A stretch of 64,000 nt of DNA from Anaerolineae bacterium (GCA_038198935.1 JBBPZQ010000103.1:25649-89648); one strand, 5' to 3'. Positions 5,283 through 40,273 are shown, numbered from the stretch's first letter. The notes: a model not told the origin generated them from the letters alone. Program-made: numbers and translations.

Positions 5283-5286
5283 CGCT

Positions 5287-10758: not shown

Positions 10759-10761
10759 ACG

Positions 10762-11022
10762 CTATCCGCCGCTCAACGCGCCGATGATGTGAATCGTGTC
10801 GCTAGGTTGCGGCGGCGCACTGAGCGCATGTGCTTGCTCGGCGTTCACGAAAATTTTGATGTGCTCACGAATCTCGTCCTGCTCGTCAATGATGCGGAAG
10901 CGCACGCCGGGAAACTGCCGATCCAAGTCGCGCGTCAGTTCGTCCAGTGTCGCGCCGTGCGCCTCGACGGTGCGCTGGTTGTGGGTGTAGCCTCGCAAGT
11001 GCGTCGAGACATGCACCTTCAT
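10762..11022 (-). CDS. MoaD/ThiS-family ubiquitin-fold protein with C-terminal Gly-Gly (second copy)
   Basis: Start MKVHV...; ends ...IIGALSGG*; 4-nt ATGA overlap with the upstream BNR gene. Confidence 0.7.
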   Translation of the reverse strand: MKVHVSTHLRGYTHNQRTVEAHGATLDELTRDLDRQFPGVRFRIIDEQDEIREHIKIFVNAEQAHALSAPPQPSDTIHIIGALSGG

Positions 11023-12182
11023 CGCGCGTGCTCCATCACTTCGACGCCGAACACTTCGGGCAAATCTTTCACGAGCAGTTGCCACGTTTCGCCTTCGTCG
11101 TCGCTGCCCCACACTTCGCCGTTGGTCGTGCCGAAATAGACGCCGACGGGATCATGGCGATCCGTCGTCAACGCTTGACGCTTGACGTTGTACCACGCCT
11201 GCTGCTTTGCGAGACCCTTGTTCTGCTTCTTCCACGTCTTGCCCGCGTTGCGCGTGACGTATGCGGATGGTCTGCCGCTGACGTTGGTGCGGGGCCAGAC
11301 GAGCGTGCCGTCCATCGGGAAGACCCACGCCACATCCGAGTCGCGCGGATGCAGCGCAATGGGGAAGCCGACGTCGCCCACTTCCTTCGGCATGTTGTCG
11401 CCGATGCGCACCCATTTGCCTTCGGCGCGATCCATGCGATAGATGCCGCAGTGATTCTGCTGATAGAGCCGATCGGGGTCGAGCGGGTGCAGTTGCAGGC
11501 AGTGAGGGTCGTGACCGTATTCGGGGTCGGGAATCGGAATGAAGTCGGCGGCACAGCCCTTGTTGAGTGGCTTCCAGTCCTCGCCGCCGTCGCTGCTCTC
11601 GAACACGCCGGCGGTCGAGATGCCGAAGTAGATGTGGTCGGGATTGCGCGGATCAATTTGGATCGAGTGCAGCGTCGCGCCGCCGGGTGGCGCATCTTGC
11701 AACGAGCCAACCCACTTCGTGCGCATTGCATGCTCGTTGAAGCCGGGCATCCCTTCCCACGTCTCGCCACCATCCATCGAGCGAAACAAGCCGGGCGGCG
11801 ACGAGCCTGCGTACCACACGCCGGGCTGCAACGCGTGACCGGGTGACAGCCAGAAGACATGGTGCACCGACTCGCCTTTTTCTCCTTCGGCTGCTTTCGG
11901 GAAGGCGGGCGGCTTGCTCGCTTCCGTCCAGGTCTCGCCCATGTCGCTCGAGCGGAACACCGTCGGTCCCAGATGGCCCGTGCGCGCCGACATCAAGATC
12001 GTGCGATGGTCGCGCGGATCGGCGACCATGTGATACGCGATGCTGCCGAGCAGGAAGGGACCCGACAACTTCCAACTCTGCCGCGAGCGATTGCCGTGCA
12101 GCATGAAGCCGCCTTTGCGTGTGGCGACAAGCAGGGTGACTGGACCGTTTGCGGGCGCGGAAGCGCCATTTTGTTTGGGCAT
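11019..12182 (-). CDS. BNR/Asp-box repeat beta-propeller protein (second copy)
   Basis: 387 aa paralog of 6279..7451 (SSDMGETW, SMDGGETW, SSDGGEDW, TRNAGKTW, SDDEGETW). Confidence 0.7.
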   Translation of the reverse strand: MPKQNGASAPANGPVTLLVATRKGGFMLHGNRSRQSWKLSGPFLLGSIAYHMVADPRDHRTILMSARTGHLGPTVFRSSDMGETWTEASKPPAFPKAAEGEKGESVHHVFWLSPGHALQPGVWYAGSSPPGLFRSMDGGETWEGMPGFNEHAMRTKWVGSLQDAPPGGATLHSIQIDPRNPDHIYFGISTAGVFESSDGGEDWKPLNKGCAADFIPIPDPEYGHDPHCLQLHPLDPDRLYQQNHCGIYRMDRAEGKWVRIGDNMPKEVGDVGFPIALHPRDSDVAWVFPMDGTLVWPRTNVSGRPSAYVTRNAGKTWKKQNKGLAKQQAWYNVKRQALTTDRHDPVGVYFGTTNGEVWGSDDEGETWQLLVKDLPEVFGVEVMEHAR

Positions 12183-12276
12183 GTATTCACCGGTCAGAGT
12201 TTCATTCGGAGCAGCGCGCAGAATCTCTTTGGGGCTGCTGTCTTAGCGCGCCGCTCAGAATGTTTGTAACGGAGAC

Positions 12277-12663
12277 TTAGCGCTGCGGCGATTGCAAGAC
12301 ATCGAACGTGTTGCCGTACAAATCCTCGAACACAAAGTCGGTGCCCCAAGGATTTTGGCGCGGCTCGTTGTGGACTTTGACGCCGCGCGACTTCAATCGT
12401 TCGTAGTCCTCTTGAATATTGTCGGAGTCGAGCACCCACGTGCCTTGCTTGCCAATCAGCGAGCGCTGCTGCTCGTCCATCGTCATGCCGAGCACGATCT
12501 CCAACTCCTTCTGCTCGGCCGGCGCGACGGTCAGCCAGCGATAATTGGGCACCGTAGTCGCGTCGTCGGTGCGGACACTGAAGCCGAGTTTGTTGACGTA
12601 GAAGTCTTTGGCTTCGTCCTGATCGTTCACCCAGATCGTAACAACGGCTAGTTTGCGAATCAT
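12277..12663 (-). CDS. VOC family protein
   Basis: 128 aa glyoxalase-like. Confidence 0.8.
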   Translation of the reverse strand: MIRKLAVVTIWVNDQDEAKDFYVNKLGFSVRTDDATTVPNYRWLTVAPAEQKELEIVLGMTMDEQQRSLIGKQGTWVLDSDNIQEDYERLKSRGVKVHNEPRQNPWGTDFVFEDLYGNTFDVLQSPQR

Positions 12664-12687
12664 GGACTACTCCTGTAGAACATAATC

Positions 12688-13131
12688 TTAGGATTGCTGC
12701 TGTGACTGCGCTGCGGCACGGCGGCGCACTTCCTCGGGCGACACATCTTCGACGTGTGTGGCGAGCCACCACTGATTGCCGAACGCGTCTTTCACGCCGG
12801 CGCTGCGGTCGCCATAGAATTGATCTTCGGGCGCGCGCAGCGAGGTAGCGCCGGCTTTCAGCGCGCGGCGATACGCCTCATCCGAGTCATTGACATACAG
12901 GTGAATCATGGCGGGCATCTGGCTGGACGCGTCCGATGCCTCCGCCAGCATCACGACCGAATCGCCTATTTTCACCTCGGCATGTGCGATGCGTCCGTTT
13001 GGATCCGTCATGCGCACCGTCTCCTGCGCGTCGAATGCATCTTGTAAAAATTGCATCAACGCTGGCGCGCGCTGAACGACGAGGTATGGCGTCACGCTGT
13101 GATACCCGTCGGGGATTGGTTTGACAGCCAT
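12688..13131 (-). CDS. VOC family protein, PhnB-like
   Basis: Start at MAVKPIPDGYHSVTPYLVV; ...GNQWWLATH motif. Confidence 0.75.
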   Translation of the reverse strand: MAVKPIPDGYHSVTPYLVVQRAPALMQFLQDAFDAQETVRMTDPNGRIAHAEVKIGDSVVMLAEASDASSQMPAMIHLYVNDSDEAYRRALKAGATSLRAPEDQFYGDRSAGVKDAFGNQWWLATHVEDVSPEEVRRRAAAQSQQQS

Positions 13132-13157
13132 CGGTGTTTCTCCTTTGCGCTTGTGGC

Positions 13158-14558
13158 TCAAGCTAGCGAGAGTGAATTCAAGAAGTCGAGCACGATGCGA
13201 TTGAACTCGTCGGGTCGTTCCATGTTGGGCAGATGTGCGGTGCCGCGCATCACTCTCGTCTGCGCGTTGGGGATTTGCTCGCCCAGCACTTTGCATGTCT
13301 GGTCAGTCTCCGTTGGGTCAAGGTCACCATAGATGATGAACGTCGGCATCCGAATCTCGTTCAAGCGGTTCACCGCTGGCGGGTCGAGCTGCTTGGGCGT
13401 CCACTCGGTCGTGTCCTCGTCCTGCATCATCGTGCGCACCTTGTCGCGCATCGCGGCGGGTACACGCTCGCGCGGTTGCAGCGGTCCATCAACCCACACC
13501 TGCATCTGCAACTCAATATATTGCGCGCTGTCTTTGTCTTTCCAGGCTTGTTGGCCGCGCGCGAACGTTTCTTTTTCCCACTGTGCTTTCGCGTCGTCCC
13601 CCATCGGGGGCCAGTAGCCGCTCAGACCCGGGGCGACGGCGATGAACGCCGCTACCATCTCCGGATGTTCGAGCGCGAAATCAATCGTCAAGCCGCCGCC
13701 CATCGAGACGCCGCACAGATACGCGCGCTCCACCTCGAGATGGTTGAGCAGGGCGAACAGGTCGTCGCGCAGGCTGTAGGTGCCGGCCTCGGTTTTGGAT
13801 TTGCCGAAGCCGCGCATGTCCCAACGGATCACGCGATAACGTTCCGCGAACTCCGCAACCTGCTCGTCCCACATGCGATGGTCGGCAATGCCTGCATGCA
13901 GCAAGACGAGTGGATGTCCTTCGCCCTGCTCCTCGTAATACAAATTACAGCCGTCCACTTTGATGAAGCCTGATGACATCGCTATCCCTCCATGCTGTCG
14001 CAAGCTGCGCGCAATCTCGTCGCGTTTGTTGCTGACGGCAGCCGTGAGCGCAGTGCGGTTCTGGTAATCGCGCGCGTTCACGTCCGCGCCGTGCACGAGC
14101 AGCCACTCGACCAACGGTGGGTGATTGAAATACACAGCGCCATGCAGCGGCGGACTAATACCGTCGCCGCCGTTCACAGGCGCGCCGTGCGCGAACAGCA
14201 GCTCGGCAATGTCCAAACGACCGCTGATGGCGGCAAAATAGAGCGCGGGCAAGCCGTGTGCGCCGCTGGCTTTTGCGAGTGAGGCATCGCCTTGCAGCAT
14301 TGCCGCGACGCGCTCATGCTCGCCGAGCATTGCGGCGGTGCAGATGTCAAGCGGCGCGCCAGCATCCAGCAAGAGTTGCACAATCTCCCGCTGGCCCGTT
14401 TGTGCTGCCGCTTGAATCGGGGTCTCTATCCAACTGGCATTCGTCGTCGCTAACACGGGGTATTGCGCCAGTAGCGTCTTGACGCGCGCGAAGTCACCAT
14501 GACAGACGCCGACGAATTCATCAATGATGTTTTGGGGGATGGCTGTGCTCGAACTCAT
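13158..14558 (-). CDS. ankyrin-repeat domain fused to an alpha/beta hydrolase domain
   Basis: 466 aa; N-terminal ankyrin repeats (TPIQAAAQTGQREIVQLLLDAGAPLD...), C-terminal hydrolase (HPLVLLHAG, GVSMGGG). Confidence 0.75.
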   Translation of the reverse strand: MSSSTAIPQNIIDEFVGVCHGDFARVKTLLAQYPVLATTNASWIETPIQAAAQTGQREIVQLLLDAGAPLDICTAAMLGEHERVAAMLQGDASLAKASGAHGLPALYFAAISGRLDIAELLFAHGAPVNGGDGISPPLHGAVYFNHPPLVEWLLVHGADVNARDYQNRTALTAAVSNKRDEIARSLRQHGGIAMSSGFIKVDGCNLYYEEQGEGHPLVLLHAGIADHRMWDEQVAEFAERYRVIRWDMRGFGKSKTEAGTYSLRDDLFALLNHLEVERAYLCGVSMGGGLTIDFALEHPEMVAAFIAVAPGLSGYWPPMGDDAKAQWEKETFARGQQAWKDKDSAQYIELQMQVWVDGPLQPRERVPAAMRDKVRTMMQDEDTTEWTPKQLDPPAVNRLNEIRMPTFIIYGDLDPTETDQTCKVLGEQIPNAQTRVMRGTAHLPNMERPDEFNRIVLDFLNSLSLA

Positions 14559-23499: not shown

Positions 23500-25737
23500 T
23501 TAGCTTCGCGGTCCGCGGTCGCCGCCGCCACGGAATGGCGGACGTCCGCCACGATCTCCGCCGCGGTCGCCACCACCACGATAGCCGCCACCGTCACGTC
23601 CACCGCCAGAGCGCCCGCCACTGCTCGGCTTGCGGTCGGCATCACGCGCTTGCTCCGCCGTCCAGCCCGCCAGTACTGCCTGGCGCGACAAACGCACCTT
23701 GCCGGCCGGATCAATGTCAATCACCATCACCGTCAACTCGTCGCCGAGCTTCACGATGTCCTCGACGCGGTTCACGCGATAGTCGGCTAACTGCGAGATG
23801 TGTACCATGCCGTCCAGCCCGGGCAGAATCTCCACGAACGCGCCAAAGTCGGCGACGCGCGTGACCTTGCCCGTGTAAATGTCGCCGATCTTCGCGTCTT
23901 CGGTCATGGCGCGAATCTTCGCCTCGGCGGCCGCAGCACCCGCGCCGTCGGGCGACGAGATGAACACCGAGCCGTCGTCCTCCACGTCAATCTTCACCTT
24001 GAACTCTTCGATCATCGCGCGAATCGTCTTGCCGCCAGGCCCGATGACCTTGCCGATCTTCTCCGGATCAATCTTGACGACGGTCACGCGCGGCGCGTAC
24101 TGACTCATCTCTGCGCGCGGCTGGTTGATCGCCGCCAGCATCTTGTCCATGATGAACATGCGGCCCTCGCGCGCCTGCGCCAATGCTTGCGTCATGATGT
24201 CGGCACGCAATCCTTTGATCTTCATGTCCATCTGCAACGCGGTGATGCCCTTCGCGGTGCCCGCGACCTTGAAGTCCATATCGCCGAGCGCGTCTTCCAT
24301 GCCCTGAATGTCGGACAGCACGGCGTACTTGCCGTCGTCGCGCGTGACGAGTCCCATGGCGATGCCAGCGACAGGCGCTTTGATCTTCACGCCCGCGTCC
24401 ATGAGCGCCAGCGTGCTCGAGCACACCGACCCCATCGAGGTCGAGCCGTTCGACGAGAGCACTTCGGACACGACGCGCACGGTGTACGGAAAGTCTTGCT
24501 CGTCAGGAATCACATTGCGCAGTGCAGTCTCCGCCAGCGCGCCGTGGCCGATCTCGCGGCGGCGCGGTCCCCGCATCGGATACGCTTCGCCCGTGCTGAA
24601 CGGCGGGAAGTTGTAATGATGGATGTAGCGTTTCGATTCTTCGGGGCGCAGTCCGTCCAAGGATTGCTCTTCGCCCACGGTGCCGAGTGTGGCGATGGAC
24701 AGCACTTGCGTCTGGCCGCGCGTGAACAAGCCCGAACCGTGCGCACGCGGCGAGAGGCCGACCTCAGAGCTGATGGGGCGAATCTCTGTCAGGCCGCGTC
24801 CATCAGGGCGAATGCCCTTGTCGAGGATCGCATTACGGACTTCGGTCTTCATCGCCGCGTCGAAACCCGCTTTGACTTCGGCCGGGTCCAGATCGGACAG
24901 CGACGCTTTCAGGTTGTCTTCAATGGTGTCGAGCGCGGACTCGCGCGCTTCTTTCGAGAGCGATTGCGAGAGCACATCGGTGATGCGCGTGCCGAGTTTC
25001 GCGACGACGGCGTCATGCGCGTCGCTCTTCGCGGCGGCGGGGTAGCTCATCTTCGGCTTGCCCATCTCTTTGGCCATCTGGTTCTGCAACACGATGACAT
25101 TTTGGATCGCCTGGTGTCCGCTGTTGAGCGCATTCAGCATCACATCTTCGGGCACTTCGTTCGCGCCCGCTTCGACCATCAGGATCGCTTCGCTCGTGCC
25201 CGCCAAACGCAGGTCGAGTTGCGACTTTTCCATCTGGTCGGCGGTCGGGTTCATCACAAAAGCGCCGTCAATCATGCCGACGCGCACCGCGCCGATGGGG
25301 CCATAGAACGGGATACTGCTGATCATCAATGCGGCGGACGCGCCGATAATGGCGGGGATGTCGAGATAGTTTTGTACGTCGTAAGAGATGGTCGTGGCGA
25401 CGACTTGCACGTCGTTGCGGAAATCTTTGGGGAAGAGGGGCCGCAGCGGGCGGTCTATCAGACGGGCGACCAGGATCGCGGCTTCGCTCGGTCGGCCCTC
25501 GCGGCGGAAGAATGAGCCGGGGATGCGGCCTGCCGCGTAGAGCCTCTCTTCAAATTCGACCGACAGCGGGAAGAAATCAATGTCGGGACGCGCGCTTTTG
25601 CTGGCAGTGGCTGTGACGAGCACGACCGTGTCGCCGATGCGCACCGTCACCGCGCCGCCGGCCAGCTGTGCCAGCTTGCCCGTCGAGATAACAACGTCTT
25701 GTTCGCCAAGTTTGGCGGTATAAACTTTTTCGTCCAT
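23500..25737 (-). CDS. pnp: polyribonucleotide nucleotidyltransferase (PNPase) with Arg/Gly-rich C-terminal tail
   Basis: 745 aa; two RNase PH domains, KH and S1 domains, plus about 50 aa of RGG-type tail. Confidence 0.95.
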
Positions 25738-26574: not shown

Positions 26575-27855
26575 ATGGCGACCCGACGTTTTATCTATCT
26601 CGATCACGCGGCGACAACGCCCGTACATCCCGACGTATTAGCCGCGATGACGCCATATTTTACGGAAGAATTCGGGAACCCCGGCGGCTTGTACTCGCTC
26701 AGTCAGCGCGCGAAGGATGCGGTCGAAACGGCGCGGCGCGACGTGGCTCGCGTGCTCGGCTGCTCGCCGTCGGAAATCATTTTTACCAGCGGTGGCTCGG
26801 AGAGCGACAACCTTGCGATTAGGGGCGTAGCGTTTGCGGCTCGGCCCATGTTCCGCCACGGTGCGCGTGTCCGTCGCGACAACCCAGCCATTCGCGGTGC
26901 AGCGTTTGAGGCAATTACTCGCTCCTCCGCGCAGAAAGGAAGGGCAGCGACGGGGGTTCGCGGTCATCTCATCACTTCGACCATCGAGCATCACGCCGTC
27001 GAGAGCACCTGCCATCAACTGCGCGATCATTTTGGCTTCGAGGTGACTGAGGTTGGCGTGGACGCTTATGGCCAGGTTGATCCTGACGACGTGCGGAAGT
27101 CAATCAGGCCAAACACCATCGCGATCTCGATCATGTATGCGAACAACGAGGTCGGCACCATTCAGCCGCTTGCGGAAATTGGCAGCATCGCGCGCGAGTA
27201 CGGCATTCCGTTCCATACCGACGCAGTGCAGGCAGCTGCGTACTTGCCCGTCAACGTCAACGCGCTTAATGTTGACTTGCTCTCGCTCGGCGCACATAAG
27301 TTTTATGGACCCAAAGGCGTCGGCGTGCTGTACGTGCGCAAAGGTACGCCGCTTATGCCGACGCAGACTGGCGGCGGACACGAGAGCAATCGGCGCGCGG
27401 GCACCGAGAACGTGCCGTACATCGTCGGCTTAGCGAAGGCGCTCGAACTGACGCAAGCCAATCGCGAGCAAAACGTCGCGCTGCTCAATCCACTGCGCAC
27501 ACGATTGATTGACGGCGTGACCAGCACGATCGAGCGCTCGCAGCTCACGGGTCACCCGACCGAGCGGTTGCCGCACAATGCGAGTTTCGTCATCGAAGGT
27601 GTCGAGGCGGGCCCCGTCTTGCTCGCGCTTGACATGGCTGGTATCGCCGCGTCGTCGGGCTCCGCCTGCACATCGGCGGCGATGGAGCCAAGCCACGTGC
27701 TCAAGGCGATAGGCGTGCCGCGCAAACACTCGCACGGCGCGCTGCGTATGACGCTTGGCCCAGAGAACAAGATGGACGAGATGGATGTGGTGTTGGAGAC
27801 GGTGGCGGATGTGGTGGCGCGGTTGCGGAAGATGACGACACGGAGTACAGGATAA
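26575..27855 (+). CDS. iscS: cysteine desulfurase (NifS/IscS family, class V aminotransferase)
   Basis: Start MATRRFIYLDHAATTP; PLP-lysine region SLGAHKFYGPKGVGVLY; active-site SSGSACTS. Carries an extra insertion of about 24-33 aa near residues 80-130. Confidence 0.9.
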   Translation: MATRRFIYLDHAATTPVHPDVLAAMTPYFTEEFGNPGGLYSLSQRAKDAVETARRDVARVLGCSPSEIIFTSGGSESDNLAIRGVAFAARPMFRHGARVRRDNPAIRGAAFEAITRSSAQKGRAATGVRGHLITSTIEHHAVESTCHQLRDHFGFEVTEVGVDAYGQVDPDDVRKSIRPNTIAISIMYANNEVGTIQPLAEIGSIAREYGIPFHTDAVQAAAYLPVNVNALNVDLLSLGAHKFYGPKGVGVLYVRKGTPLMPTQTGGGHESNRRAGTENVPYIVGLAKALELTQANREQNVALLNPLRTRLIDGVTSTIERSQLTGHPTERLPHNASFVIEGVEAGPVLLALDMAGIAASSGSACTSAAMEPSHVLKAIGVPRKHSHGALRMTLGPENKMDEMDVVLETVADVVARLRKMTTRSTG

Positions 27856-27925
27856 GTTCTGCTTGCTGCTCACGATGGCGGGGTGTATGCATAGTTGTAT
27901 TGACGTGAATCAGAAAGGTGGACAG

Positions 27926-30613
27926 ATGACTCAGGAATCCTCAAGAAAAATCGAAACAAGCAACCAAAGTGGCGGTATCAACATCAGCGGCGGCAATATC
28001 ATTAGTGTTGAAGGGGATTTTGTCGGGCGTGATCAGATCGTCAAGATTTCTGCTCCTGTTGCCATACACCAACTACCACCTGATTCGACTAACTTCATCG
28101 GTCGAGAAGAGGAAGTTAGCAAGGCACTCGCAATTCTGTCAACTAACATGGAAGCCCCTACAATTCTTATCTTCAACGGCAACGGGATGGGTGGGGTGGG
28201 TAAGACAGCGTTAGCTATACATATTGCTCATCAACTAATAGCGAGATACCCTGATAGTCAGCTGTTCGTGAATCTGCGTGGGGGAAGTGGTTCACCAATG
28301 AGTTCATCAGCGGCCATGGCCCATGTCATCAGATCATTTCACCCTGATGTGCGACTGCCTAACACTGTAGAGGATTTAACAGCGATCTATCGCAGTGTTT
28401 TGTACGGGCAGAGGATTCTGTTAATTCTCGATGACGCGGCAGATGCTGAGCAAGTGACCCCACTTCTCCCTAGTTCTTCATCGTGTGCGGTATTCATAAC
28501 CTCACGTAAACGCTTTGACCTGCCCGGCGTTCCCAGGGTTGATTTGGATGTGCTTTCGGCAGACGCTTCACGCGAGTTGCTGATGCGTTTGGACCCGCGC
28601 CTTCGTGATACCCCTGATATAGCTGCCCGAATTGCCTCTCTGTGTGGGCATTTGCCACTTGTCTTACGAATTGCCGGCTCTACCCTGAGAGCTAGGCCCC
28701 ATCTGATTCCAGCCGAATATGCCGGCGAATTGGCGGCAATAAGCCTCAGTTCACTTTCACAAGGGTCTGCTCACATCACCATCCAAGAGGTTTTCGACCT
28801 TAGTTACGGACAATTAAGCCCACAACTACAAGCAGCATGGGTTAAATTGGCTGTGTTCACATCTACGTTTGATCGCACGGCAGCGGCTGCTGTATGGAAC
28901 GTGGATGAAAGACAGACCAAGACGTGGCTAGACGAATTGGCGAACTCTAGCTTGATCAATCGGTACAATGAAACCCAACGTTATGCTCTACATCCCTTAT
29001 TGCTCGATTTCGCCTTGAGTTTCTCACCACAGTTTGATCTAACTGAAGCACATGAACGACACGCTCACTACTACCTCTCTGTAGCTCGCCAAGCTGGTAA
29101 ACTATACTTTGAGAGTGGAGAAGGGGTGCTGCGTGGTTTAGCTCTATATGACCAAGAGTGGCCGAACATTCAGTCAGCATTGACACGACTAGCTAAACAG
29201 GCCCCGGATAATTCCGTGGCTGCGCGGTTGTACTGCGATTACATTGACGCGAGTATTTATTACCTTGAACTTCGCCTGTCTCCAAAGGAACTAATCATGT
29301 GGTTGGAACGAGCAGTCGCCGCCGCTCGTTTATTAGGCGATAGACAGGCGGAAAGCAGCCACCTGAGCAACTTAGGCTTGAATTATTCAACACTAGGGGA
29401 AAGCCGTCAGGCCATAGAATATTACCAACAAGCGCTCACCATCGCGCGTGAAATAGGAGACAAACATGCCGAAAGTGTAGACCTAGTGAATCTTGGACAA
29501 GCGTATGCTACACTAGGTGAGATAAGGCATGGCATAGAGTTCTACACCGAAGCATTGCAAATAGCCAGAGAAATTGGAGATCGCCTCACAGAAAGCACAG
29601 TGCTGGATGGTTTGGGAGGGGCTTATTCTGCTCTAGGTGACTATCGGCGCGCCATTGAGTCCCATGAACAAGCATTACTAATTGCTCGTGCAATTGGAAA
29701 TAGACGAGGCGAAGGGAATATTCTCGGAAACCTAGGGGTTGCCTACGCCGCATTAGGCAATCTTCGCCACGCTATTGAGTTCTATGAACAGGCATTGATC
29801 ATTGCTCGCGAGATTGGTGATCGACGCAGCGAAAGTAACCAACTGGGCAGTTTAGGGAATGCTTATGCGGTCCTTGGTGAGGCTCACCACGCGATCGAAT
29901 ATTATGAACAAGCGTTACATATTGCGCGTGAATTGGGTGACCAAGTTAATCAAGGAGTCAATCTAGCAAATCTAGGAATAGCGTACACTCGTCTCGGGGA
30001 CATTCAACGCGCCTTTGAATTGTCTGAACAATCTCTGCTTATTGCACAGAGGACCGGCGACCGTCGAAGCGAAAGTAGCCGACTTGGTAATCTGGGAATG
30101 GCCTACGCATCACTAGGTGAAATACCCAATGCAATTCAATACTATGAGAAGGCGCTTGTCATCGCCCAGCAACTGGAGGATGCACGGTCTCTCGCTAACG
30201 TTTCGTTTGAGCTGGGCGTACTCTATGCCGAACATGATCGCTGGCACGACGGCCTCCGGTTGCTCGAACAGAGCCTTGCCATCCGTCGCCAATTCGACGA
30301 CCTCAACGCGCGCGCCGACACAATTTTTCAAATTGCTCGCACACACCACCTAATGAGTAATCTTGAAAATGCACGGGTACATTACCGCGATGCACTGCGC
30401 TTGTATCAACGGACCCATAACCAGCGCGGCATCGCCGCCTGCAAAAACGGTTTGGGCCGCCTGGCGATTCAGTTGGGCTTCAGTGCCGATGCGACACGGG
30501 AACTTGCTCAGGCGCACGAAATGTATGTTGAATTAGGAGACACGCAACGCGCCAGCGAGGTCGAAGAGGTTCTCCGGCTGGCTAATCACGCGAAGGAGAA
30601 ACAACCCGCATGA
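27926..30613 (+). CDS. STAND-family NTPase (NB-ARC-like P-loop) with C-terminal tetratricopeptide (TPR_12-type) repeat array
   Basis: AAAGGTGGA RBS; FIGREEE pre-Walker motif, Walker A GMGGVGKT, Walker B ILLILDD, about 10 TPR-like repeats (NLG.AY..LG....AIE.YEQAL.IAREIGDR). Local GC is visibly lower than the flanks. Confidence 0.8.
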   Translation: MTQESSRKIETSNQSGGINISGGNIISVEGDFVGRDQIVKISAPVAIHQLPPDSTNFIGREEEVSKALAILSTNMEAPTILIFNGNGMGGVGKTALAIHIAHQLIARYPDSQLFVNLRGGSGSPMSSSAAMAHVIRSFHPDVRLPNTVEDLTAIYRSVLYGQRILLILDDAADAEQVTPLLPSSSSCAVFITSRKRFDLPGVPRVDLDVLSADASRELLMRLDPRLRDTPDIAARIASLCGHLPLVLRIAGSTLRARPHLIPAEYAGELAAISLSSLSQGSAHITIQEVFDLSYGQLSPQLQAAWVKLAVFTSTFDRTAAAAVWNVDERQTKTWLDELANSSLINRYNETQRYALHPLLLDFALSFSPQFDLTEAHERHAHYYLSVARQAGKLYFESGEGVLRGLALYDQEWPNIQSALTRLAKQAPDNSVAARLYCDYIDASIYYLELRLSPKELIMWLERAVAAARLLGDRQAESSHLSNLGLNYSTLGESRQAIEYYQQALTIAREIGDKHAESVDLVNLGQAYATLGEIRHGIEFYTEALQIAREIGDRLTESTVLDGLGGAYSALGDYRRAIESHEQALLIARAIGNRRGEGNILGNLGVAYAALGNLRHAIEFYEQALIIAREIGDRRSESNQLGSLGNAYAVLGEAHHAIEYYEQALHIARELGDQVNQGVNLANLGIAYTRLGDIQRAFELSEQSLLIAQRTGDRRSESSRLGNLGMAYASLGEIPNAIQYYEKALVIAQQLEDARSLANVSFELGVLYAEHDRWHDGLRLLEQSLAIRRQFDDLNARADTIFQIARTHHLMSNLENARVHYRDALRLYQRTHNQRGIAACKNGLGRLAIQLGFSADATRELAQAHEMYVELGDTQRASEVEEVLRLANHAKEKQPA

Positions 30614-31881
30614 ACGAGGCAGACCGTCTTTGGGATGAACTGGACATCACCTACGCGCACTGGGGATTGAACGAGATTCCGTTTTCCGAAGTCCCGCCCT
30701 TGTTGCGCGAGTCGCAGTTGTCAGAGATTTTCACAGGCCGCACACAAGAATTGCGCGAGGTATTCAATCTGTTTCGCGGGCGCGAACGCAAACGCCTGTT
30801 TGTGTATGGCTGGGTCGGCATCGGCAAAACTGCCTTCATTCTTGAAGTGTTGAGCGTATTGCGCCGCCGAGCGAAAGATACATTAGCCGCGTACATCAGC
30901 CTGCCCCCAGAGACCGATTTGGCGACCGCGGCTCTGATCGCGCTCGCTCGCGAAATGGAAGACGACGAATGGGCGCAACACCAACTGAACCAGATGGGAT
31001 TGCGCCCGCGAACGCGCGCAGTCGAAAAAGAAACGACGGTGAAGGCTGGCTTAGCTGGCATGGGCGTCGAGACCAAAGAAGAAACCGTCCCGATTTCTCC
31101 GCCGCGTTTTCCTGCGCTGAGTTTTGAAGACCTATTGAAACGCGCGTTGCAGAAGTATCACCGCGTTGTCATTGCGATAGATGACCTCGACAAGCAAGAC
31201 CCGGCGCGCGTGCGCGAATTGCTGCGGAACGATCAGGGAATGCTCAAGGGCGGCGCTTGGTTCATGCTCACGGGGCATCCATCAGGCTTGACGCGCGATA
31301 TTGTAACGCGCGAACTGGGGTTGTTCGATCTCGCTATCGAGTTGAAGAAACTGGATCAACCCACAACCTATCGGATGCTGATCAACTACCTCAATAGCGC
31401 GCGTCCACACAATGCGCGGCGCGACCACGAAGATCCGCTTTCAGTCCGCCCCTTCACGCCTGAAACTGCGCGTATTCTTTGCGAACGGTCAGATGGGGTG
31501 CCACGTTGGCTCAATCGGCTGGGCAGTTATGTTTTGCTCAAGGCGGCTGAACTTCACGCCGACATCATCACTCCCGATGTGTTGCAGCACGGATTAGAGT
31601 ATGCCGATCAACAGTTGCGCGGACAAACAGGGCTGACGCTTGAAGATCGCTATGTGCTTGAGCTGGTGTTAGAGAAAGGCACTTTCTCAGATGACTCCGC
31701 AACACTGGATGATCTTGAACACCTCAAGGTTAAAGAGTTCAACGAGGTCATGCCGATCCTAGAGAAACTGGTGCAACTCGATCTGTTGCGTCGCGTGCCG
31801 ACCGAACGCGCAACGGAGTATGCGCCCACGCCGATGGTGTCAGGCAAGAGCGAATCGTCTTCTGAAATCGCGCATGACTAA
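30610..31881 (+). CDS. AAA+/STAND-like ATPase (AAA_16 / Orc1-Cdc6-like P-loop NTPase)
   Basis: 4-nt ATGA overlap with the upstream gene; FTGRTQEL motif, Walker A GWVGIGKT, Walker B VVIAIDDLD. Confidence 0.7.
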   Translation: MNEADRLWDELDITYAHWGLNEIPFSEVPPLLRESQLSEIFTGRTQELREVFNLFRGRERKRLFVYGWVGIGKTAFILEVLSVLRRRAKDTLAAYISLPPETDLATAALIALAREMEDDEWAQHQLNQMGLRPRTRAVEKETTVKAGLAGMGVETKEETVPISPPRFPALSFEDLLKRALQKYHRVVIAIDDLDKQDPARVRELLRNDQGMLKGGAWFMLTGHPSGLTRDIVTRELGLFDLAIELKKLDQPTTYRMLINYLNSARPHNARRDHEDPLSVRPFTPETARILCERSDGVPRWLNRLGSYVLLKAAELHADIITPDVLQHGLEYADQQLRGQTGLTLEDRYVLELVLEKGTFSDDSATLDDLEHLKVKEFNEVMPILEKLVQLDLLRRVPTERATEYAPTPMVSGKSESSSEIAHD

Positions 31882-31933
31882 CCATTTGCAACACACCACT
31901 TCGCGTCCCGAGCCTGTCGAAGGGCGCCCCCGT

Positions 31934-31985
31934 GTCGTCGTCGCCCTCAGCGGCAGAGTGGATAGTTCGAGCGTTGCCCACTGCT
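31934..31985 (+). pseudogene. degenerate duplicate of the mnmA 5' end (encodes RVVVALSGRVDSSSVA)
   Basis: About 52 bp at roughly 85% identity to mnmA codons 6-22 at 32348..32400 (KVVVALSGGVDSSTTA). Confidence 0.55.
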
Positions 31986-32031
31986 CGCCTAACAGGAGCA
32001 GGATCAAGTAGATTCCGATTGGAGGCTTATC

Positions 32032-32319
32032 GTGATGAATCCAACGATGACGACAACTAATATCCTGACATTAGAAGAAGTCGCCGAGTATCTGCGACTA
32101 CCAAAAGAGACCGTAGAGCGTCAGGCATTGCGCGGTCAAATTCCAGGACGGCGTATCGAAGATACTTGGCGTTTCCTCAAAACGGCGATTGACGAATGGT
32201 TGCGTAGCCACGACAGCCGCGCGATTTTGTTACAGCAAGCAGGCGCATTAGCAGACGATGAGTCTTTGCCGCAACTGGTCGAGACGATTTACGTAGGGCG
32301 CGGACATTGCGCGTCGTGA
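32032..32319 (+). CDS. helix-turn-helix DNA-binding protein, excisionase/HTH_17 family
   Basis: 95 aa; ILTLEEVAEYLRLPKETVERQALRGQIPGRRI...WRF matches excisionase-family DNA-binding domains. Confidence 0.6.
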   Translation: MMNPTMTTTNILTLEEVAEYLRLPKETVERQALRGQIPGRRIEDTWRFLKTAIDEWLRSHDSRAILLQQAGALADDESLPQLVETIYVGRGHCAS

Positions 32320-32329
32320 ACTGAATGGA

Positions 32330-33445
32330 TTGAAGATGAGCACGAAAGTCGTCGTCGCCCTCAGCGGCGGCGTGGACAGTTCGACAACCGCCGCGCTGCT
32401 CGTCGAGCGCGGTTATGATGTCGTCGGCGTGATGATGCGCCTGTGGGCGGGCGTGGGGCCCGACGGCGGCGAGTACAATCGCTGCTGCTCGCCCGAAGCC
32501 GTCGCCGACGCGCGCTCGGTGTGCGTGCGCCTCGGCATTCCGTTTCACTTACTGAACTTTGAAGCGCCGTTCAAGCAATACGTCGTGGATTTCTTTCTCG
32601 ACGGCTACACGCGCGGCGTCACGCCGAATCCGTGTGTCGAATGCAATCGGCACGTCAAGTTCGACGCGCTGCTCAAGCAGGCGCTCGCGCTCGGCGCGGA
32701 TTATCTGGCGACAGGTCACTACGCGCGTGTGCAAACACTTCAAGATGAAAGCGTTCAGTTGTTGAAGGGTGTTGATCCCCTGAAGGATCAATCGTATGCG
32801 CTCTGCATGTTGACGCAGGCGCAACTCTCGCGTTCGATGTTTCCGCTCGGCGAGTTCACGAAGCAGCAGGTGCGGCAGATGGCGCGCGAGCGCAACATCA
32901 TCGTCGCCGAGAAGAGCGAGAGTCAGGAATTGTGTTTCGTGCAGAAAGACTATCGCGAGTTTGTGCAAGAGCAGCGCCCAGACGCGTTCGTGTCGGGCCC
33001 CATTCTCGATTTGCACGGCAATGTTGTAGGCGAGCACGATGGCTTGCCCGCGTACACGATTGGCCAGCGTAAGGGCTTGCATATACATCCTGAGCCGCAT
33101 CGAACGATGGCGGCCGGCGAGCCGCTGTATGTGGTTGACGTGGACGCTGCTCGCAATGCGCTGGTCGTTGGGCGCAAGCACCAGGTGTGGCAAGAGCACA
33201 TGCTTGTCACGCACATTAACTGGATCAGCGGAGAAGCGCCGAGCGAGACGCTTGAAGTGAACGTGAAGATTCGCTACAAGAGTGAAGAAAAGTCCGCGCG
33301 CGTCGAGCCGTTGGCTGATGCGAGCGCGCGCGTGACATTCGCCCAGCCACAGCGTGCGATCACCCCCGGTCAAGCAGCCGTGTTCTATCGTGGCGACGCT
33401 TGTCTGGGCGGCGGCATCATCACGCGCATGGGAGCGAGCCAATGA
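32330..33445 (+). CDS. mnmA: tRNA 2-thiouridine(34) synthase MnmA
   Basis: 371 aa; PP-loop VVVALSGGVDSS, catalytic Cys motifs (NPCVECN, ELCF). Confidence 0.9.
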   Translation: MKMSTKVVVALSGGVDSSTTAALLVERGYDVVGVMMRLWAGVGPDGGEYNRCCSPEAVADARSVCVRLGIPFHLLNFEAPFKQYVVDFFLDGYTRGVTPNPCVECNRHVKFDALLKQALALGADYLATGHYARVQTLQDESVQLLKGVDPLKDQSYALCMLTQAQLSRSMFPLGEFTKQQVRQMARERNIIVAEKSESQELCFVQKDYREFVQEQRPDAFVSGPILDLHGNVVGEHDGLPAYTIGQRKGLHIHPEPHRTMAAGEPLYVVDVDAARNALVVGRKHQVWQEHMLVTHINWISGEAPSETLEVNVKIRYKSEEKSARVEPLADASARVTFAQPQRAITPGQAAVFYRGDACLGGGIITRMGASQ

Positions 33446-36222: not shown

Positions 36223-38010
36223 CTATTGCAGAAGATGTAATTGCTTACCTGTCGCGGATTCCCAGATCCGTGCGCTGCCATCATGGCTTGCCGTCGCTAC
36301 CGTCCTGCCATCTGGGCTCCAGGCTACCATGTTCACTGCGCCTTGATGCCCGCGCAAGACCGCGACGACTTGTCCGGAATTGGCGTCCCAAATTTGCGGT
36401 TCTTGGGCTGTCAGCACTCGGCTGGTTGCCACCCGTTGCCCGTTCGGGCTCCACGCCACATCGAAACTCTCTCCAGACGTTTTCAACGTCAACAGAATTT
36501 CACCCCTGGAGGGCTCCCAAACGCGCACCTCATTAATGGCAGCGGTGGCGATCCGCTTCCCCTCAGGACTCCAGACCGCATCAAAAACGCGATCGTTGTG
36601 CGGTAAGATGATAAGATTTTTCCCGCTGTTGGGATCCCACACCCGTGCCGTCTGATCGTCACTGGCTGTGAGCAGGCGCTGTCCGTCGGGACTCCAACTT
36701 ACCATGCGCACGCCTAACAAGTGCCCTGCAAGAACCGCCAAAGGCTTGCCCGTGTCGGCATCCCATACCCGTGCTGTCAGATCCAAACTTGCGGTGGCAA
36801 GGCGCTTCCCATCTGGGCTCCATGCCACCCGACTGACTAGAATTTGATGCCCCGTCAACGTTGAGAGCAGTTGGCCCGTCTGTGCGTCCCACACCCGCGC
36901 CCACACCCGCGCCCGCACATCCAAAGTCGCGGTCGCGAGGCGATCGCCTTTTGGGCTCCACGTGATCTGATTGACTTTCCCAAAGTCTGTCACTCCCAAC
37001 GTCAGCAGCAACTTGCCGCTGCCCACGTCCCATACACGCGAAACGTCGCTGGCGGTGGCGAGTTGTTTTCCATCGGGACTCCACTCCACGTTGAAAATCG
37101 CGGCCTTGCGAGTACCAAAAGTTTCGGAGAGAGTTCGTAGTCGCTTACCCGAGACGGAGTCCCACACATACGCCACGCCGTCGGAGTCCGCAGTTGCCAA
37201 CTGTGTGCCATCGGGACTCCATGCCACGCTGGTTACGCGTGGAAGGTTCGGCACGGCGCTTGCCGCGGGTGTTGGCGCAGCGGTGGTGCGGCTGATGGGC
37301 GTGAGGGTGGGCGCAACTGCCGCCGTCACAGTTAACAACATCTGATCATTCCACTTCCCGCCTGTCAATTCGCCTAAATCGGGAAAGCCGCTGTCCAGCA
37401 CTGCTCGTGTGGCTGGACTCGGCGCCGCAGGCGGCACGCCATCCGGCACGACGATCTGCTGCCCCGACACCGCCTCAACGGTCACGCCCGCAGCTGCTGC
37501 CTCCACGCTTCCCGTTTTGACGATTGTCCAGGTACGGTGCAAGCGCACATCGTAATTAACGAAGAACTCGGTGCCAGTGGCGGTGATCGTGACGCCACCA
37601 GGCGTTTGAAATTGTATGCGCTGTGCTGCGCGCGCTTGTGGCGTGATGGTGTTGAACACGCTGCCATTATTCAGCAGGAACTGAATGAGCAGCGGCGCGC
37701 TAGGGTCAACTCCTGCGTACTTCAGTTGCACCTCAGAATCATGGAAGATGTCCACCACGAGCAGGTCGGCAAACCTCAACAGTGCTTCGCCTTGAGGCTT
37801 CACATCAATCTTGTCACCTTGGCGCGCGACACGCGTAGAGCCGACGGGGATCGTTTCGCCTGCTGCGGATTGCGGCTGGAAAACGACTTCGGCCTTTTGC
37901 GTTTCCAGCGTCGCATCGGTTTCGGATGAAGATGGCCCCAATGGGCTAATCGGACCACATGCGAACAGCAATAGCAGCATCGCGAACAGTCGGCGATTAC
38001 GCGCGTGCAT
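36223..38010 (-). CDS. WD40-repeat lipoprotein with N-terminal non-WD domain
   Basis: Signal peptide with lipobox LLLFAC; at least 8 WD40 repeats (AWSPDG.QLATAS.D.TARVWD). Confidence 0.8.
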   Translation of the reverse strand: MHARNRRLFAMLLLLFACGPISPLGPSSSETDATLETQKAEVVFQPQSAAGETIPVGSTRVARQGDKIDVKPQGEALLRFADLLVVDIFHDSEVQLKYAGVDPSAPLLIQFLLNNGSVFNTITPQARAAQRIQFQTPGGVTITATGTEFFVNYDVRLHRTWTIVKTGSVEAAAAGVTVEAVSGQQIVVPDGVPPAAPSPATRAVLDSGFPDLGELTGGKWNDQMLLTVTAAVAPTLTPISRTTAAPTPAASAVPNLPRVTSVAWSPDGTQLATADSDGVAYVWDSVSGKRLRTLSETFGTRKAAIFNVEWSPDGKQLATASDVSRVWDVGSGKLLLTLGVTDFGKVNQITWSPKGDRLATATLDVRARVWARVWDAQTGQLLSTLTGHQILVSRVAWSPDGKRLATASLDLTARVWDADTGKPLAVLAGHLLGVRMVSWSPDGQRLLTASDDQTARVWDPNSGKNLIILPHNDRVFDAVWSPEGKRIATAAINEVRVWEPSRGEILLTLKTSGESFDVAWSPNGQRVATSRVLTAQEPQIWDANSGQVVAVLRGHQGAVNMVAWSPDGRTVATASHDGSARIWESATGKQLHLLQ

Positions 38011-40273
38011 CGGCTACCTCCCGTCGAGATGCTTCATCCGCCGACGCAAAAACATAAAAGCCCAGCCCGCCCAACGCGCCGATGCTGAGACCGCAGATCA
38101 ATGCCAACGCGAAATTGTTCGACCAAAGATCGCTGAACAACGCCGACAAGATGGCTGCGAGCGCGGTACCCATTGGGATGAACAACAATCGCTGCGTTCG
38201 CGCGCGCGCCAACGCGGCGCTCACACCCAAGCCAGCACCAAGCAGCGCACCAACGATTAGGTGTCCCGCGTTCAGCGGGGGAGCAGCTACGGCAACATAG
38301 AGCGCAAAGGCGATAGCGCTCAGGGGCGCGCAGACGAGTAGCATAGCCAACCATTTGCGTTTGGGTTGTGCTTGCCAACGCCACAAACACAGCCCCATAC
38401 CGAAACCGATCGCCGCGCCGATTGGGAACATGGTGAGAAACGCCAGTGCCACAACGCCGATCAGCAAATTCGGTAAGAGCGCAGCCGACTTGAAGTATGT
38501 GAGCAATGCGAAGCCGAGCGCAAAACCTAAGCCAACGCCTAAAGCGCCGCCGCCGGCTTGCTTCAAGAAGCGAAACTGCCTGTCTCTCTCATCGGCTAGC
38601 GCGTCCGATACCGCGCGCCTCTTTTCGATTTCACTTTCGCGCGCTTGTCTCTCTTCGTTCTGTTGCTGCTCGCGCTCGTGTGCTGCCTTGCTTGCGTCCA
38701 AGAAGGCTCGCGCCGAATCGTCCAGCGTGTCCTCGTGCTGTGCGCGCCACTGCATCGCGCCATCTAACTGGTACCCGTGATACAAGAAACTTTCGTTTTG
38801 ATCTGACTGCTCCCATTCTTGCGCGCGCTCGTTGAGGCGGCGCTTCACCCGCTCATCAGCGCGGCGGTCGTCGAGCCACGTTCGCAGCAAGTCCCATTCG
38901 CGGATGAGCGCTTCGTGTGCCACCTCGACCGTATCGGACTCCGCGATGACTAATCTCGCCTCCACCAGCATCGTTAGCACCGCATCCACACTTGGTTGAT
39001 CCGCACGGTGTGGAGACAATGAGCGGCGGGCGACCCGTCTCCGTGTATCGGGCGCGTCATCTCGCATCTCCGTCAAACTCACGAAGATGCCGCGCGCGAT
39101 GCGCTGCTGCTCGTCGCGCAATTGCAAATAGACAGCCGTAGCACTTTGTGCAATCGCGCCCCGCACGCCGCCTGCCTCGTGATAGCCTTGCAGCGTCAGT
39201 TGTCGCCCCCGCCGACGCTTCCACGTTTCGAGCAGCGCGTGAGAGAGCAAGGGCAGAGCACCAGGCTCATGGCCCACATCGGTGAGCAGCAAGTCCACCA
39301 AGCCTGCCTCAAACTGCCAGTTGCCCTCTCGCGCAGGTTGCTCGATGGCGCGGCGCAGTTCGTCGGGCTGCATTGCGTTGAGGTTGTACTGGTGCTGCGG
39401 CAGCACGCGGAAGAAGTCGGGGAAGACCGCGCACTGCTCGTAGAAGTCGGCGCGAACGGTGAGCACGACGCGCACTGGCCCCGCCGTGTCGTCCGCGACG
39501 GCATGGAGCAAGTTGTCCACGAACGCCTTGCGCTCGATGGGCTCTTTGCACGCGGTGAACACTTCCTCGAACTGGTCCACGACGAGCAGCAGTCGCTCGC
39601 CGCCATCCTGCTTGAGCGCGCGCGACGCGGCTAGGTCGAGGCTGCGCGCGTCGTGCGCGAGGTCGTCTATCAGCGTCGCCTGCGCGGTGACGGATTCGGA
39701 CGCGCGCGTGAGTGATGCCGCGAGTTCTTTCAGTGGATGCTCGGTCGGTTTGATGAGGTGCAGTTGCCAGCGTGGGCTGCCGTCGGGCATGACGAAGTGC
39801 TGCGGCTTGTCGGGATGCATAGCGGCGACGAGACCTGCGCGCACTACCGACGATTTGCCGCTGCCCGACGCGCCGACGACGGCGAGCAAGCGCTGCTCGC
39901 GCACATGGGCGACCAATTTGGCGGTGACCGCTTCGCGGCCGAAGAACAGCGGCGCATCCGCCACGTCGAAGTAGAGTAAGCCTTTGAACGGCGGCTCGCC
40001 GGGCGCGGGTTCGTCGGATTCAGCAGCGGCTGGCGCAGCCCGCTCACCAAAAATGACAGTCGCGCCCTCTCCAACGTTATAGATGTCGCGGATCACCTTG
40101 TCACGCCCGACAACATCTCCGCCGGCACGAACATGGCCGCTGCTGACGTTCACACCACCCGATTGGCTGGTGGTGGACCCACCCGCGGCGGAATTCGTCG
40201 GGGTATCTGCGCTGGGTTCATCGTTTGCGTTCGCACTCACGAGCTTTCTCCTGTCGAGCATCGTATGCCTCAC
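37997..40273 (-). CDS. STAND-type P-loop NTPase with N-terminal Gly-rich motif, coiled-coil and C-terminal multi-pass transmembrane domain
   Basis: FFGREAV pre-Walker motif, Walker A GASGSGKSS, Walker B LLLVVDQFEE, Glu/Arg-rich coiled coil, about 6 hydrophobic helices at the C-terminus; overlaps the WD40 gene by 14 nt. Confidence 0.7.
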   Translation of the reverse strand: MRHTMLDRRKLVSANANDEPSADTPTNSAAGGSTTSQSGGVNVSSGHVRAGGDVVGRDKVIRDIYNVGEGATVIFGERAAPAAAESDEPAPGEPPFKGLLYFDVADAPLFFGREAVTAKLVAHVREQRLLAVVGASGSGKSSVVRAGLVAAMHPDKPQHFVMPDGSPRWQLHLIKPTEHPLKELAASLTRASESVTAQATLIDDLAHDARSLDLAASRALKQDGGERLLLVVDQFEEVFTACKEPIERKAFVDNLLHAVADDTAGPVRVVLTVRADFYEQCAVFPDFFRVLPQHQYNLNAMQPDELRRAIEQPAREGNWQFEAGLVDLLLTDVGHEPGALPLLSHALLETWKRRRGRQLTLQGYHEAGGVRGAIAQSATAVYLQLRDEQQRIARGIFVSLTEMRDDAPDTRRRVARRSLSPHRADQPSVDAVLTMLVEARLVIAESDTVEVAHEALIREWDLLRTWLDDRRADERVKRRLNERAQEWEQSDQNESFLYHGYQLDGAMQWRAQHEDTLDDSARAFLDASKAAHEREQQQNEERQARESEIEKRRAVSDALADERDRQFRFLKQAGGGALGVGLGFALGFALLTYFKSAALLPNLLIGVVALAFLTMFPIGAAIGFGMGLCLWRWQAQPKRKWLAMLLVCAPLSAIAFALYVAVAAPPLNAGHLIVGALLGAGLGVSAALARARTQRLLFIPMGTALAAILSALFSDLWSNNFALALICGLSIGALGGLGFYVFASADEASRREVADARA

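Follow-up and report, generated by a model that had tools for sequence, protein, structure and literature searches.

Two apparently independent accessory modules between iscS and mnmA of an Anaerolineae bacterium, including a probable split NLR-like conflict cassette

The sequence analysed here is a stretch of 64,000 nt from an Anaerolineae bacterium (GCA_038198935.1 JBBPZQ010000103.1:25649-89648), referred to below as the window, with positions counted from its start. In the window the genes iscS and mnmA were found to lie 4.47 kb apart, the interval being occupied by a gene for a large NB-ARC/tetratricopeptide repeat (TPR) protein, an overlapping ATPase gene and a small HTH_17 gene. The original prediction, made from the sequence alone, held that iscS and mnmA are commonly adjacent and treated the approximately 4.5 kb between them as one horizontally acquired island. 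Comparison with homologous loci (L-numbers) and homologous proteins (P-numbers) indicates that the interval is almost certainly a composite of two separate insertions, namely an acquired two-gene cassette and the remnant of a toxin-antitoxin pair, of which the HTH_17 gene would be the orphan antitoxin. The features of the locus are as follows.

iscS, ending at 27855, plus strand: Pfam Aminotran_5
27856..27925, plus strand: leader from the iscS stop to the cassette start and left edge of the variable slot; homology of relatives (L109, L002) stops at the iscS 3' end
27926..30613, plus strand: partner (sensor) gene, 895 aa, with Pfam NB-ARC and TPR matches
27962..28042, plus strand: G-rich beta-type N-terminal motif SNQSGGINISGGNIISVEGDFVGRDQIV, seen in the translation, without domain match
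30158..30610, plus strand: constant TPR-like "dock" at the C-terminus of the partner (residues ~745-895), defined by homology among partners
30610..31881, plus strand: constant ATPase, 423 aa, with N-terminal WGLxEIPFSE, AAA+ core, lid and C-terminal winged helix
31874..32011, plus strand: remnant of what was originally the mnmA 5' end (pseudo-ORF MTNHLQ...RVVVALSGRVDSS...), recognized as a direct repeat; right edge of the variable slot
32032..32319, plus strand: HTH_17 gene, 95 aa (HTH_17 match, E 7.7e-13), very probably an orphan VapB-like antitoxin
32330..33445, plus strand: functional mnmA (tRNA_Me_trans domains; start at 32330/32336), in which the duplicated 5' end is present a second time as the first ~60 nt

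The likeliest start of the partner gene is the ATG at 27926, which is preceded at a distance of 6 nt by a Shine-Dalgarno-like GGTGGA. Judged from its sequence, the product is a genuine NB-ARC/TPR protein of the STAND class (signal transduction ATPases with numerous domains) with a complete module. The NB-ARC domain covers residues 61-260 (E 2.7e-11; PF00931 with 43.6 bits against a cut-off of 23.5), and a Walker A motif (GMGGVGKT), a Walker B motif (LLILDDA), a sensor-1 motif (FITSR), GHLPLV and an MHD-like ALHPLL could be recognized by eye in the translation. Eight clear TPR units of 40 aa follow at residues 456-775 (TPR_12, E 4.7e-52), being 40-65% identical to each other, and lead into a TPR-like C-terminal region. 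The predicted combination of NB-ARC and TPRs was therefore found, with 895 instead of 896 aa and with eight clear repeats instead of about ten. At the DNA level the units are 50-66% identical, and no tandem repeats were detected in this region by Tandem Repeats Finder.

The N-terminal ~55 aa of the partner gave no Pfam or NCBIfam domain, and no recognizable N-terminal effector domain was detected with either database, so that this segment contains the G-rich motif only. This agrees with the tiny N-terminal module described originally, but the Avs/bNACHT-like layout proposed with it found no match in PADLOC, which returned matches to generic TPR models (PDLC01169, PDLC01078) plus a weak one to PDC-S39, and no Avs, bNACHT or NLR (nucleotide-binding domain, leucine-rich repeat) model. 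The motif occupies the position where STAND proteins normally carry an effector or adaptor. Its segment SGGINISGGNIISVEGDFVGRDQIV recurs in the partners of L057, L107 and L103; a looser variant is present in the C-terminal extension of an Omnitrophica ATPase (P0068), where other members of that family bear effectors, and the same motif (SGGVNVSSGHVRAGGDVVGRDKV) is found at the N-terminus of an unrelated nSTAND1 protein of the window (37997-40273, minus strand, 758 aa, E 5e-127). The 3' end of the nSTAND1 gene overlaps a gene for a 595-aa WD40 beta-propeller protein (pair at 36223-40273, minus strand), and the nSTAND1 protein is hydrophobic in its C-terminal part. The motif may, by analogy, be an amyloid-like signalling motif, although this is regarded as a lead only. 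It resembles the NLR-associated bacterial amyloid signalling motifs of filamentous bacteria (BASS; Dyrka et al., bioRxiv 10.1101/2020.01.06.895854), which are likewise G/N/V/I-rich and approximately 25-30 aa long, with a predicted preference for beta structure. The likeness is one of composition and position, the window motif lying at the N-terminus of an NB-ARC/TPR protein of a filamentous-type lineage and recurring on other proteins. Unlike in BASS, a hidden Markov model (HMM) of the motif detected over the 64-kb window only the STAND partner and the nSTAND1 protein, and no adjacent effector with a matching C-terminal motif.

The ATPase gene overlaps the partner stop by ATGA and encodes 423 aa, as had been predicted. 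In addition to AAA_16 (E 2.7e-11), the protein was matched by ATPase_2 and AAA_22 (28.4 bits, cut-off 27). An AlphaFold2 model (predicted local distance difference test score 75.9) displays an AAA+ base, a lid and a C-terminal winged helix in a Cdc6/Orc- and STAND-like fold, with Cdc6/Orc and PF01637 ATPases outscoring TnsC. The motifs WGLNEIPF and GVPRWLNR resemble those of the ExeA/GspA type, for which we take an N-terminal GLxxxPF, an AAA_22-type core and a GxPR sensor-2 to be the family marks. Sequence searches of the PDB and NCBIfam gave sub-threshold RuvB and Orc1/Cdc6 matches only (the Orc1/Cdc6 threshold of TIGR02928 was not reached), no NCBIfam GspA or ExeA model matched, and PADLOC returned zero matches for this protein. 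On the basis of sequence and model, the protein is an AAA+ ATPase that resembles Orc/Cdc6 and ExeA, bears a winged helix and passes no curated family threshold; the Orc-like part of the earlier description stands, whereas the protein is not a classical STAND ATPase. The invariance of the N-terminal WGLxEIPFSE, of Walker A (GIGKT), Walker B (IDDLDK), R265 and GVPR...R299/R303 among homologs, together with the predicted fold, suggests that it is catalytically competent.

More than 440 ATPase homologs were retrieved in a word-indexed search, the best 120 of them being 57-82% identical to the window protein. They originate from Chloroflexota, Cyanobacteria (Moorena, Okeania, Nostocales, Crocosphaera) and two metagenome-assembled genomes (MAGs), of Omnitrophica and Methanothermobacter. 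The last of these (P0071, 76% identical, labelled Methanothermobacter tenebrarum) is due either to transfer between domains or to contamination during binning. When 1.84 billion representatives were searched exhaustively with a profile, 298 proteins reached E<=1e-3 and 64 of them E<=1e-30, almost all being 405-435 aa long, which indicates a small and sharply bounded family. In Chloroflexota, Cyanobacteria and further phyla its identities range from 50 to 82%.

The neighbourhoods of three homologs and of 78 metagenome loci were examined. A TPR protein precedes the ATPase on the same strand in all 55 loci with enough upstream sequence, and the partner stop overlaps the ATPase start in most loci, with a gap of ~130 nt in one lineage. 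The partners share a dock of ~150 aa at their extreme C-terminus, detected by BLAST in 51 partner open reading frames (ORFs) and by HMM in 4 more. A word-indexed search with the dock alone gave 11 matches only. Compared with the C-termini of 50 other partners, the dock of the window protein (residues ~745-895) shows 30-64% identity, with W773, D822, A823, R825, G835, G844 and G851 invariant. Among 39 non-redundant partners, TPRs were found in every one and a STAND P-loop (NB-ARC) module in about nine; other N-termini consist of Clp_N-like repeats, HEAT-like repeats or a cyanobacterial helical region, and minimal partners of 128-265 aa exist. The genes 3' of the ATPase are unrelated across 38 loci and often on the opposite strand, and no third gene or effector is conserved there in these loci. 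Because the pairing is constant and the downstream genes are unrelated, the unit consists of two genes, the first encoding a variable N-terminus and a constant dock and the second the constant ATPase. At 30585-30613 of the window the C-terminal ...KEKQ.. of the partner is encoded by AAGGAGAAACAA, which doubles as a Shine-Dalgarno sequence for the overlapping ATPase start, and for this reason part of the apparent protein conservation at the partner C-terminus may reflect translational coupling.

A constant-plus-variable pattern was observed within this unit. Between alleles at the same locus, found on cyanobacterial metagenome contigs, identity is 97% in the downstream flank, 98.5% in the ATPase and ~99% over the final 480 nt of the partner gene; the remainder of the partner aligns at ~71-75% in fragments, with partner lengths from 488 to 1000 aa. 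In L064 and L079 the same constant module (99.8% identical) was found with a different flank and a Clp_N-type partner, and L034 and L035 have ATPases 94% identical, with a P-loop module in one partner and TPRs only in the other. Partners from hot springs (L047, L077, L050, L048, L049) are identical save for the number of near-identical 40-aa TPR units, giving 627, 667, 707, 747 and 787 aa, which may represent either real alleles or repeats collapsed in the metagenomes. A seam is also seen in the window, where the G+C content of the partner gene changes from 0.48-0.49 to 0.565 at the dock and nucleotide homology to other cassettes starts at ~30056-30229 and extends over the whole of the ATPase gene.

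The partner gene had originally been noticed as AT-richer than the flanks. It is the long ORF with the highest AT content in the window, its G+C content of 0.50 (0.46 at third codon positions, GC3) being the lowest and ~3 standard deviations below that of the other ORFs of at least 150 aa (0.594±0.032; GC3 0.717±0.086). Intermediate values were found for the ATPase gene (0.555; GC3 0.63) and the HTH gene (0.52; GC3 0.53). A MnmA scan of species-representative genomes gave 22 loci, mostly of Chloroflexota. The distance between iscS and mnmA is ~25-350 nt in 8 of 10 related loci with both genes (L003, L005, L007, L008, L011, L012, L018 and L022), so that the adjacency assumed by the original prediction is conserved in most relatives and interrupted in the window. 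Conservation of the three window genes in the gaps of relatives was looked for and not found. The gap of L002 (9150-9929; MnmA 74% identical) has an antitoxin-like and a retropepsin-like ORF, that of L006 (7301-8092) a Fic gene, and that of L109 (5986-8707) two DUF5678 genes, an aspartyl-protease-like gene, a 128-aa gene and an HTH_17-PIN pair; STAND and ATPase genes are absent from these three gaps and from those of the other relatives examined. The sole other copy of the window cassette found at this locus is on an identical metagenome contig (L001). Since the relatives' gaps hold other modules and none has the STAND/ATPase genes, the slot between iscS and mnmA is variable in content and the cassette is confined to the window lineage.

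These comparisons of composition and gene order indicate that the cassette was acquired horizontally, with the partner gene an outlier in G+C and GC3, the flanking genes adjacent in relatives and the contents of the slot varying. Its nearest ATPase relative (82% identical) belongs to L024, where the partner is without NB-ARC. In that locus (4498-14394) the cassette and a 126-aa ORF without domain match lie between jetB and jetC of a Wadjet operon, which is flanked by a SNF2 helicase gene and a kinase-FGE-sulfatase gene. As to the junction itself, the gaps of relatives contain small selfish-type modules (DUF5678 or ribbon-helix-helix antitoxin-like genes with retropepsin-like aspartyl-protease genes, Fic, HTH_17-PIN), and from sequence comparison it appears to be a recurrent stacking site for such modules.

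The second module of the window (31874-32347) has a different history. More than 700 homologs of the HTH_17 protein were found, the best 120 being 66-89% identical, and in L109, L110, L112 and L113 homologs 70-89% identical are followed by an overlapping 139-aa PIN gene. An HTH_17 gene overlapping a PIN gene is the arrangement typical of VapBC-type toxin-antitoxin pairs. The closest antitoxin is P0122 of L109, at 89% identity (70-78% for the other PIN-linked homologs). In L109, whose shared genes are ~75-80% identical to those of the window at the nucleotide level, the HTH_17-PIN pair lies directly upstream of mnmA, a copy of the mnmA start (MVKRVVVALSGGVDSSTTAA..., 7896-7969) is well preserved in front of the pair, and no STAND/ATPase cassette is present. 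In the window a 37-nt copy of the mnmA 5' end (31934-31970 versus 32348-32384) is identical at 34 of 37 positions (92%). A degenerate mnmA copy at this locus had been predicted and is real, but instead of ending the insert it sits upstream of the HTH gene, ~340 nt short of the insert end. As the same duplication flanks the toxin-antitoxin pair of L109, it predates the split between the window lineage and L109, and the duplicated start is explained by insertion of an HTH_17-PIN pair into the mnmA 5' end. On this comparison of sequences, the insertion is older than, and independent of, the STAND/ATPase cassette. A VapBC-type pair very probably entered the mnmA 5' end, duplicating ~60 nt, and the window lineage later lost the PIN toxin by deletion and kept the antitoxin. 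In alignment to L109, the PIN gene is reduced to its final ~35 nt, which are fused to the HTH 3' end, and ~409 bp are removed, so that, unlike the VapBC-type pairs of L109, L110, L112 and L113, the window has no overlapping PIN gene.

In the original prediction the HTH_17 gene was an excisionase-type gene of a single island. Such a reading, in which the whole 4.5 kb is a decayed integrative element at the mnmA 5' end with the mnmA repeats as attL/attR, could draw on the 37-nt direct repeat and on the TIGR01764 "excise" domain, whose cut-off the HTH protein passes (37.9 bits versus 28.8). This match, like a weak PADLOC match to MAD1, reflects the generic HTH_17 fold. The repeats bound only a 414-bp HTH segment and leave the STAND and ATPase genes outside; the same repeats surround an intact HTH_17-PIN pair in the cassette-free L109; HTH homologs are followed by overlapping PIN genes and not by integrases; no integrase was called between iscS and mnmA or immediately beside them; and the cassette occurs elsewhere without an HTH_17 gene. 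The excisionase assignment was therefore rejected, and a single element is barely credible. The HTH_17 match itself stands, the segment being a separate insertion and no part of the cassette.

A role for the two-gene cassette in conflict is suggested by relatives of its ATPase that carry effectors. Seventeen of the top 150 profile hits exceed 500 aa, and C-terminal Mrr_cat, TIR_2 and CHAT domains were found in seven, four and one of these seventeen, respectively. The gene upstream of one CHAT-fused and of one Mrr-fused member ends in the dock (HMM E 2.9e-18 and 8e-7), from which it follows that both have the same two-gene architecture. Mrr, TIR and CHAT-type domains belong to the usual effector set of bacterial immune systems, as is well established (e.g. 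PMC7159879, PMC8195603). These effector fusions, the allelic hypervariability of the sensor, the patchy spread across phyla and the placement in a variable slot are the grounds for a conflict reading. It is considered reasonably probable that the insert represents two independent accessory modules stacked between iscS and mnmA, among them a split NLR-like conflict cassette.

According to the mechanism proposed, the acquired two-gene cassette (27856-31881) would have as its core the dock and the Orc/Cdc6-, ExeA-like ATPase, which are translationally coupled. The region N-terminal of the dock would be a fast-changing sensor, represented here by an NB-ARC STAND NTPase and eight TPR units behind the G-rich motif. 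This variable TPR/STAND part would bind a trigger, the most probable candidate being a protein from an invading element, and the dock would relay the trigger to the ATPase, resulting in an ATP-dependent switch or oligomerization. In divergent relatives, ATPase oligomerization would activate the C-terminally fused Mrr nuclease, TIR or CHAT protease. In the window clade, which has no fused effector, the output might, with low confidence, be exerted by the ATPase and its winged helix (e.g. through DNA binding) or by an effector encoded elsewhere, possibly recruited via the G-rich motif. The evidence leans slightly towards a defence or conflict system working in this manner, in which both trigger sensing and the defence role are what we infer. 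The more extensive version, a widespread and so far undescribed two-component immune system in which the near-invariant ATPase is the executor loaded via the dock by a hypervariable sensor, with a two-NTPase cascade in the window, where the sensor would be a full NB-ARC STAND protein of its own, and the G-rich motif, present also on the second STAND protein at a distance of 6 kb, as a homotypic amyloid-like adaptor for effectors encoded elsewhere, is conceivable but doubtful.

By analogy, the cassette would work most like split NLR/Avs and constant-plus-variable conflict systems, and no core of its kind is described in the literature searched. The family has in common with Avs, bNACHT and AP-ATPase-TPR proteins that an NTPase switch goes together with a TPR sensor which diversifies rapidly and that some members bear nuclease, TIR or caspase-like effectors, and the window partner has a bona fide NB-ARC with intact motifs. 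In contrast to Avs and NLR proteins, sensor and constant ATPase are separate, coupled polypeptides that would be joined by the dock; the ATPase falls outside the classical STAND clade, the NB-ARC is optional in the partner, and effectors are C-terminal on the ATPase and not N-terminal. Compared with Orc1/Cdc6 initiators and the PF01637 "archaeal ATPases" (2qby, 2qen, 2fna), the ATPase is 13-19% identical with all models below cut-off, lacks a replication context, has an obligatory TPR partner and shows a bacterial, patchy, cassette-like spread. Constant-plus-variable NTP-dependent conflict systems of multicellular bacteria have been described with cores of MoxR-vWA, GTPase-GAP1, EACC1-caspase and TRADD-N (Kaur, Burroughs, Iyer and Aravind; eLife 2020, PMC7159879; eLife 2021, PMC8195603). 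They likewise combine a constant NTPase core with modules varying between close relatives, including TPR, HEAT and Clp_N, and draw on the same effector pool (TIR, restriction endonuclease, caspase/CHAT). As in those systems, cassette loci are mostly from Cyanobacteria and Chloroflexota, including the filamentous Moorena and Okeania. Term searches of the two papers gave no core of an ExeA/Orc-like ATPase and a TPR dock, and no description of the pair was encountered in searches of these papers, of the BASS preprint and of a 2026 Nature STAND survey, or by keyword searches.

Several observations weigh against a conflict role. The window ATPase clade is without effector domain, and the ATPase is highly conserved for a defence gene (57-82% identity in the best 120, across phyla). 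PADLOC gave scattered matches only (Jet, MADS-like, kinase, Mokosh-like) on 148 neighbouring ORFs, and several cassettes adjoin housekeeping-looking genes. Conserved cassette ends, attC-like sites, target duplications and conserved sequence after the ATPase stop were not seen, and the phage, plasmid and viral contigs searched contained no copies of the cassette. The hot-spring TPR series may include assembly artefacts, as mentioned above; physical contact between dock and ATPase is deduced from gene order and co-conservation; and the conflict role as such derives from comparison of sequences and contexts. The corresponding part of the original prediction, a horizontally acquired conflict module without recognizable effector, is nevertheless retained for the coupled NTPase genes, which are lineage-specific, compositionally foreign and look like a conflict system, and is dropped for the HTH_17 gene.

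Some of these observations would suit a STAND-type signalling or transcription regulator (AfsR-, MalT- or LAL-like), in which the TPRs sense a cellular ligand and the winged helix binds DNA, perhaps controlling iscS/mnmA or developmental genes in filamentous bacteria, with no conflict role. The absence of an effector in the window clade, the high conservation of the ATPase and its winged helix are all compatible with this, as are sub-threshold NCBIfam similarities of the partner to AfsR and to TPR proteins associated with ribosomally synthesized and post-translationally modified peptides. A promoter and terminator scan of the iscS-mnmA interval gave chance-level results with no terminator detected, so co-transcription is possible. 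A regulator would not be expected to be absent from relatives at the locus, to occur in unrelated contexts with no conserved neighbours, to be hypervariable in its sensor between alleles or to have relatives with nuclease, TIR and protease effectors in place of DNA-binding outputs, and this explanation is considered unlikely.

Mobility of the cassette could also be explained if the pair served a mobile element in target selection or regulation, with a TnsC-, TniB- or MuB-like ATPase and a TPR adaptor. Precise placement inside the Wadjet operon and the differing flanks would fit, and some homologs are named ExeA-like by JGI, which we take to place them in the neighbourhood of TniB. No transposase or integrase is consistently nearby, however, and there are no terminal repeats or conserved ends; TnsC is outscored by Cdc6/Orc and PF01637, and Mrr/TIR/CHAT fusions are not a transposon feature, which makes this most unlikely. 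The same JGI names and the N-terminal "GLxxxPF" motif could instead point to an assembly chaperone pair, an ExeA-type ATPase with a TPR protein of secretin, pilus or exopolysaccharide systems (GspA/ExeA; MshM-MshN). TPR proteins are companions of ExeA-like ATPases in msh and PEP-CTERM loci, and a Moorena partner gave a faint PG_binding_1 match. This is nonetheless highly improbable, as no NCBIfam GspA, MshM or PEP-CTERM ATPase model was matched, the ATPase has no transmembrane segment, membrane anchor or peptidoglycan-binding domain (Pfam), no secretion or pilus genes were found nearby (secretion genes in none of three neighbourhoods examined), and neither the fused effectors nor the hypervariability between alleles would be expected of a chaperone.

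If the cassette is indeed a conflict system, it would represent a split NLR/STAND design in which one conserved ATPase is re-targeted by swapping or reshaping a separate sensor. Natural alleles differing only in the sensor would then be material for the study of bacterial pattern-recognition diversification. The Mrr, TIR and CHAT relatives would offer testable outputs, and the effector-less majority raises the question of an Orc-like winged-helix ATPase acting alone. The locus also illustrates, at nucleotide resolution, how selfish or defence modules come to be stacked at the housekeeping junction iscS|mnmA and how the decay of a toxin-antitoxin pair leaves the antitoxin as an orphan.

Further features were recorded in passing. 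In the Moorena loci L027/L028 (10461-13521) a second TPR gene (440 aa), without an ATPase gene of its own, lies 1.2 kb 3' of the cassette; the gene after it is of the Eco57I-type N6-methyltransferase/restriction class, and a resolvase gene is located in the vicinity. The PNPase of the window (23500-25737, minus strand) has an RGG/GGD-rich low-complexity C-terminal tail of ~45 aa (39 letters not displayed). Within iscS an imperfect 37-nt direct repeat with a spacing of 72 nt (26804-26912) lies where, by comparison with L002, L109 and L006, a variable loop of IscS is enlarged by a lineage-specific insertion (DNLAIRGVAFAA...DNPAIRGAAFEA, up to ~30 aa).

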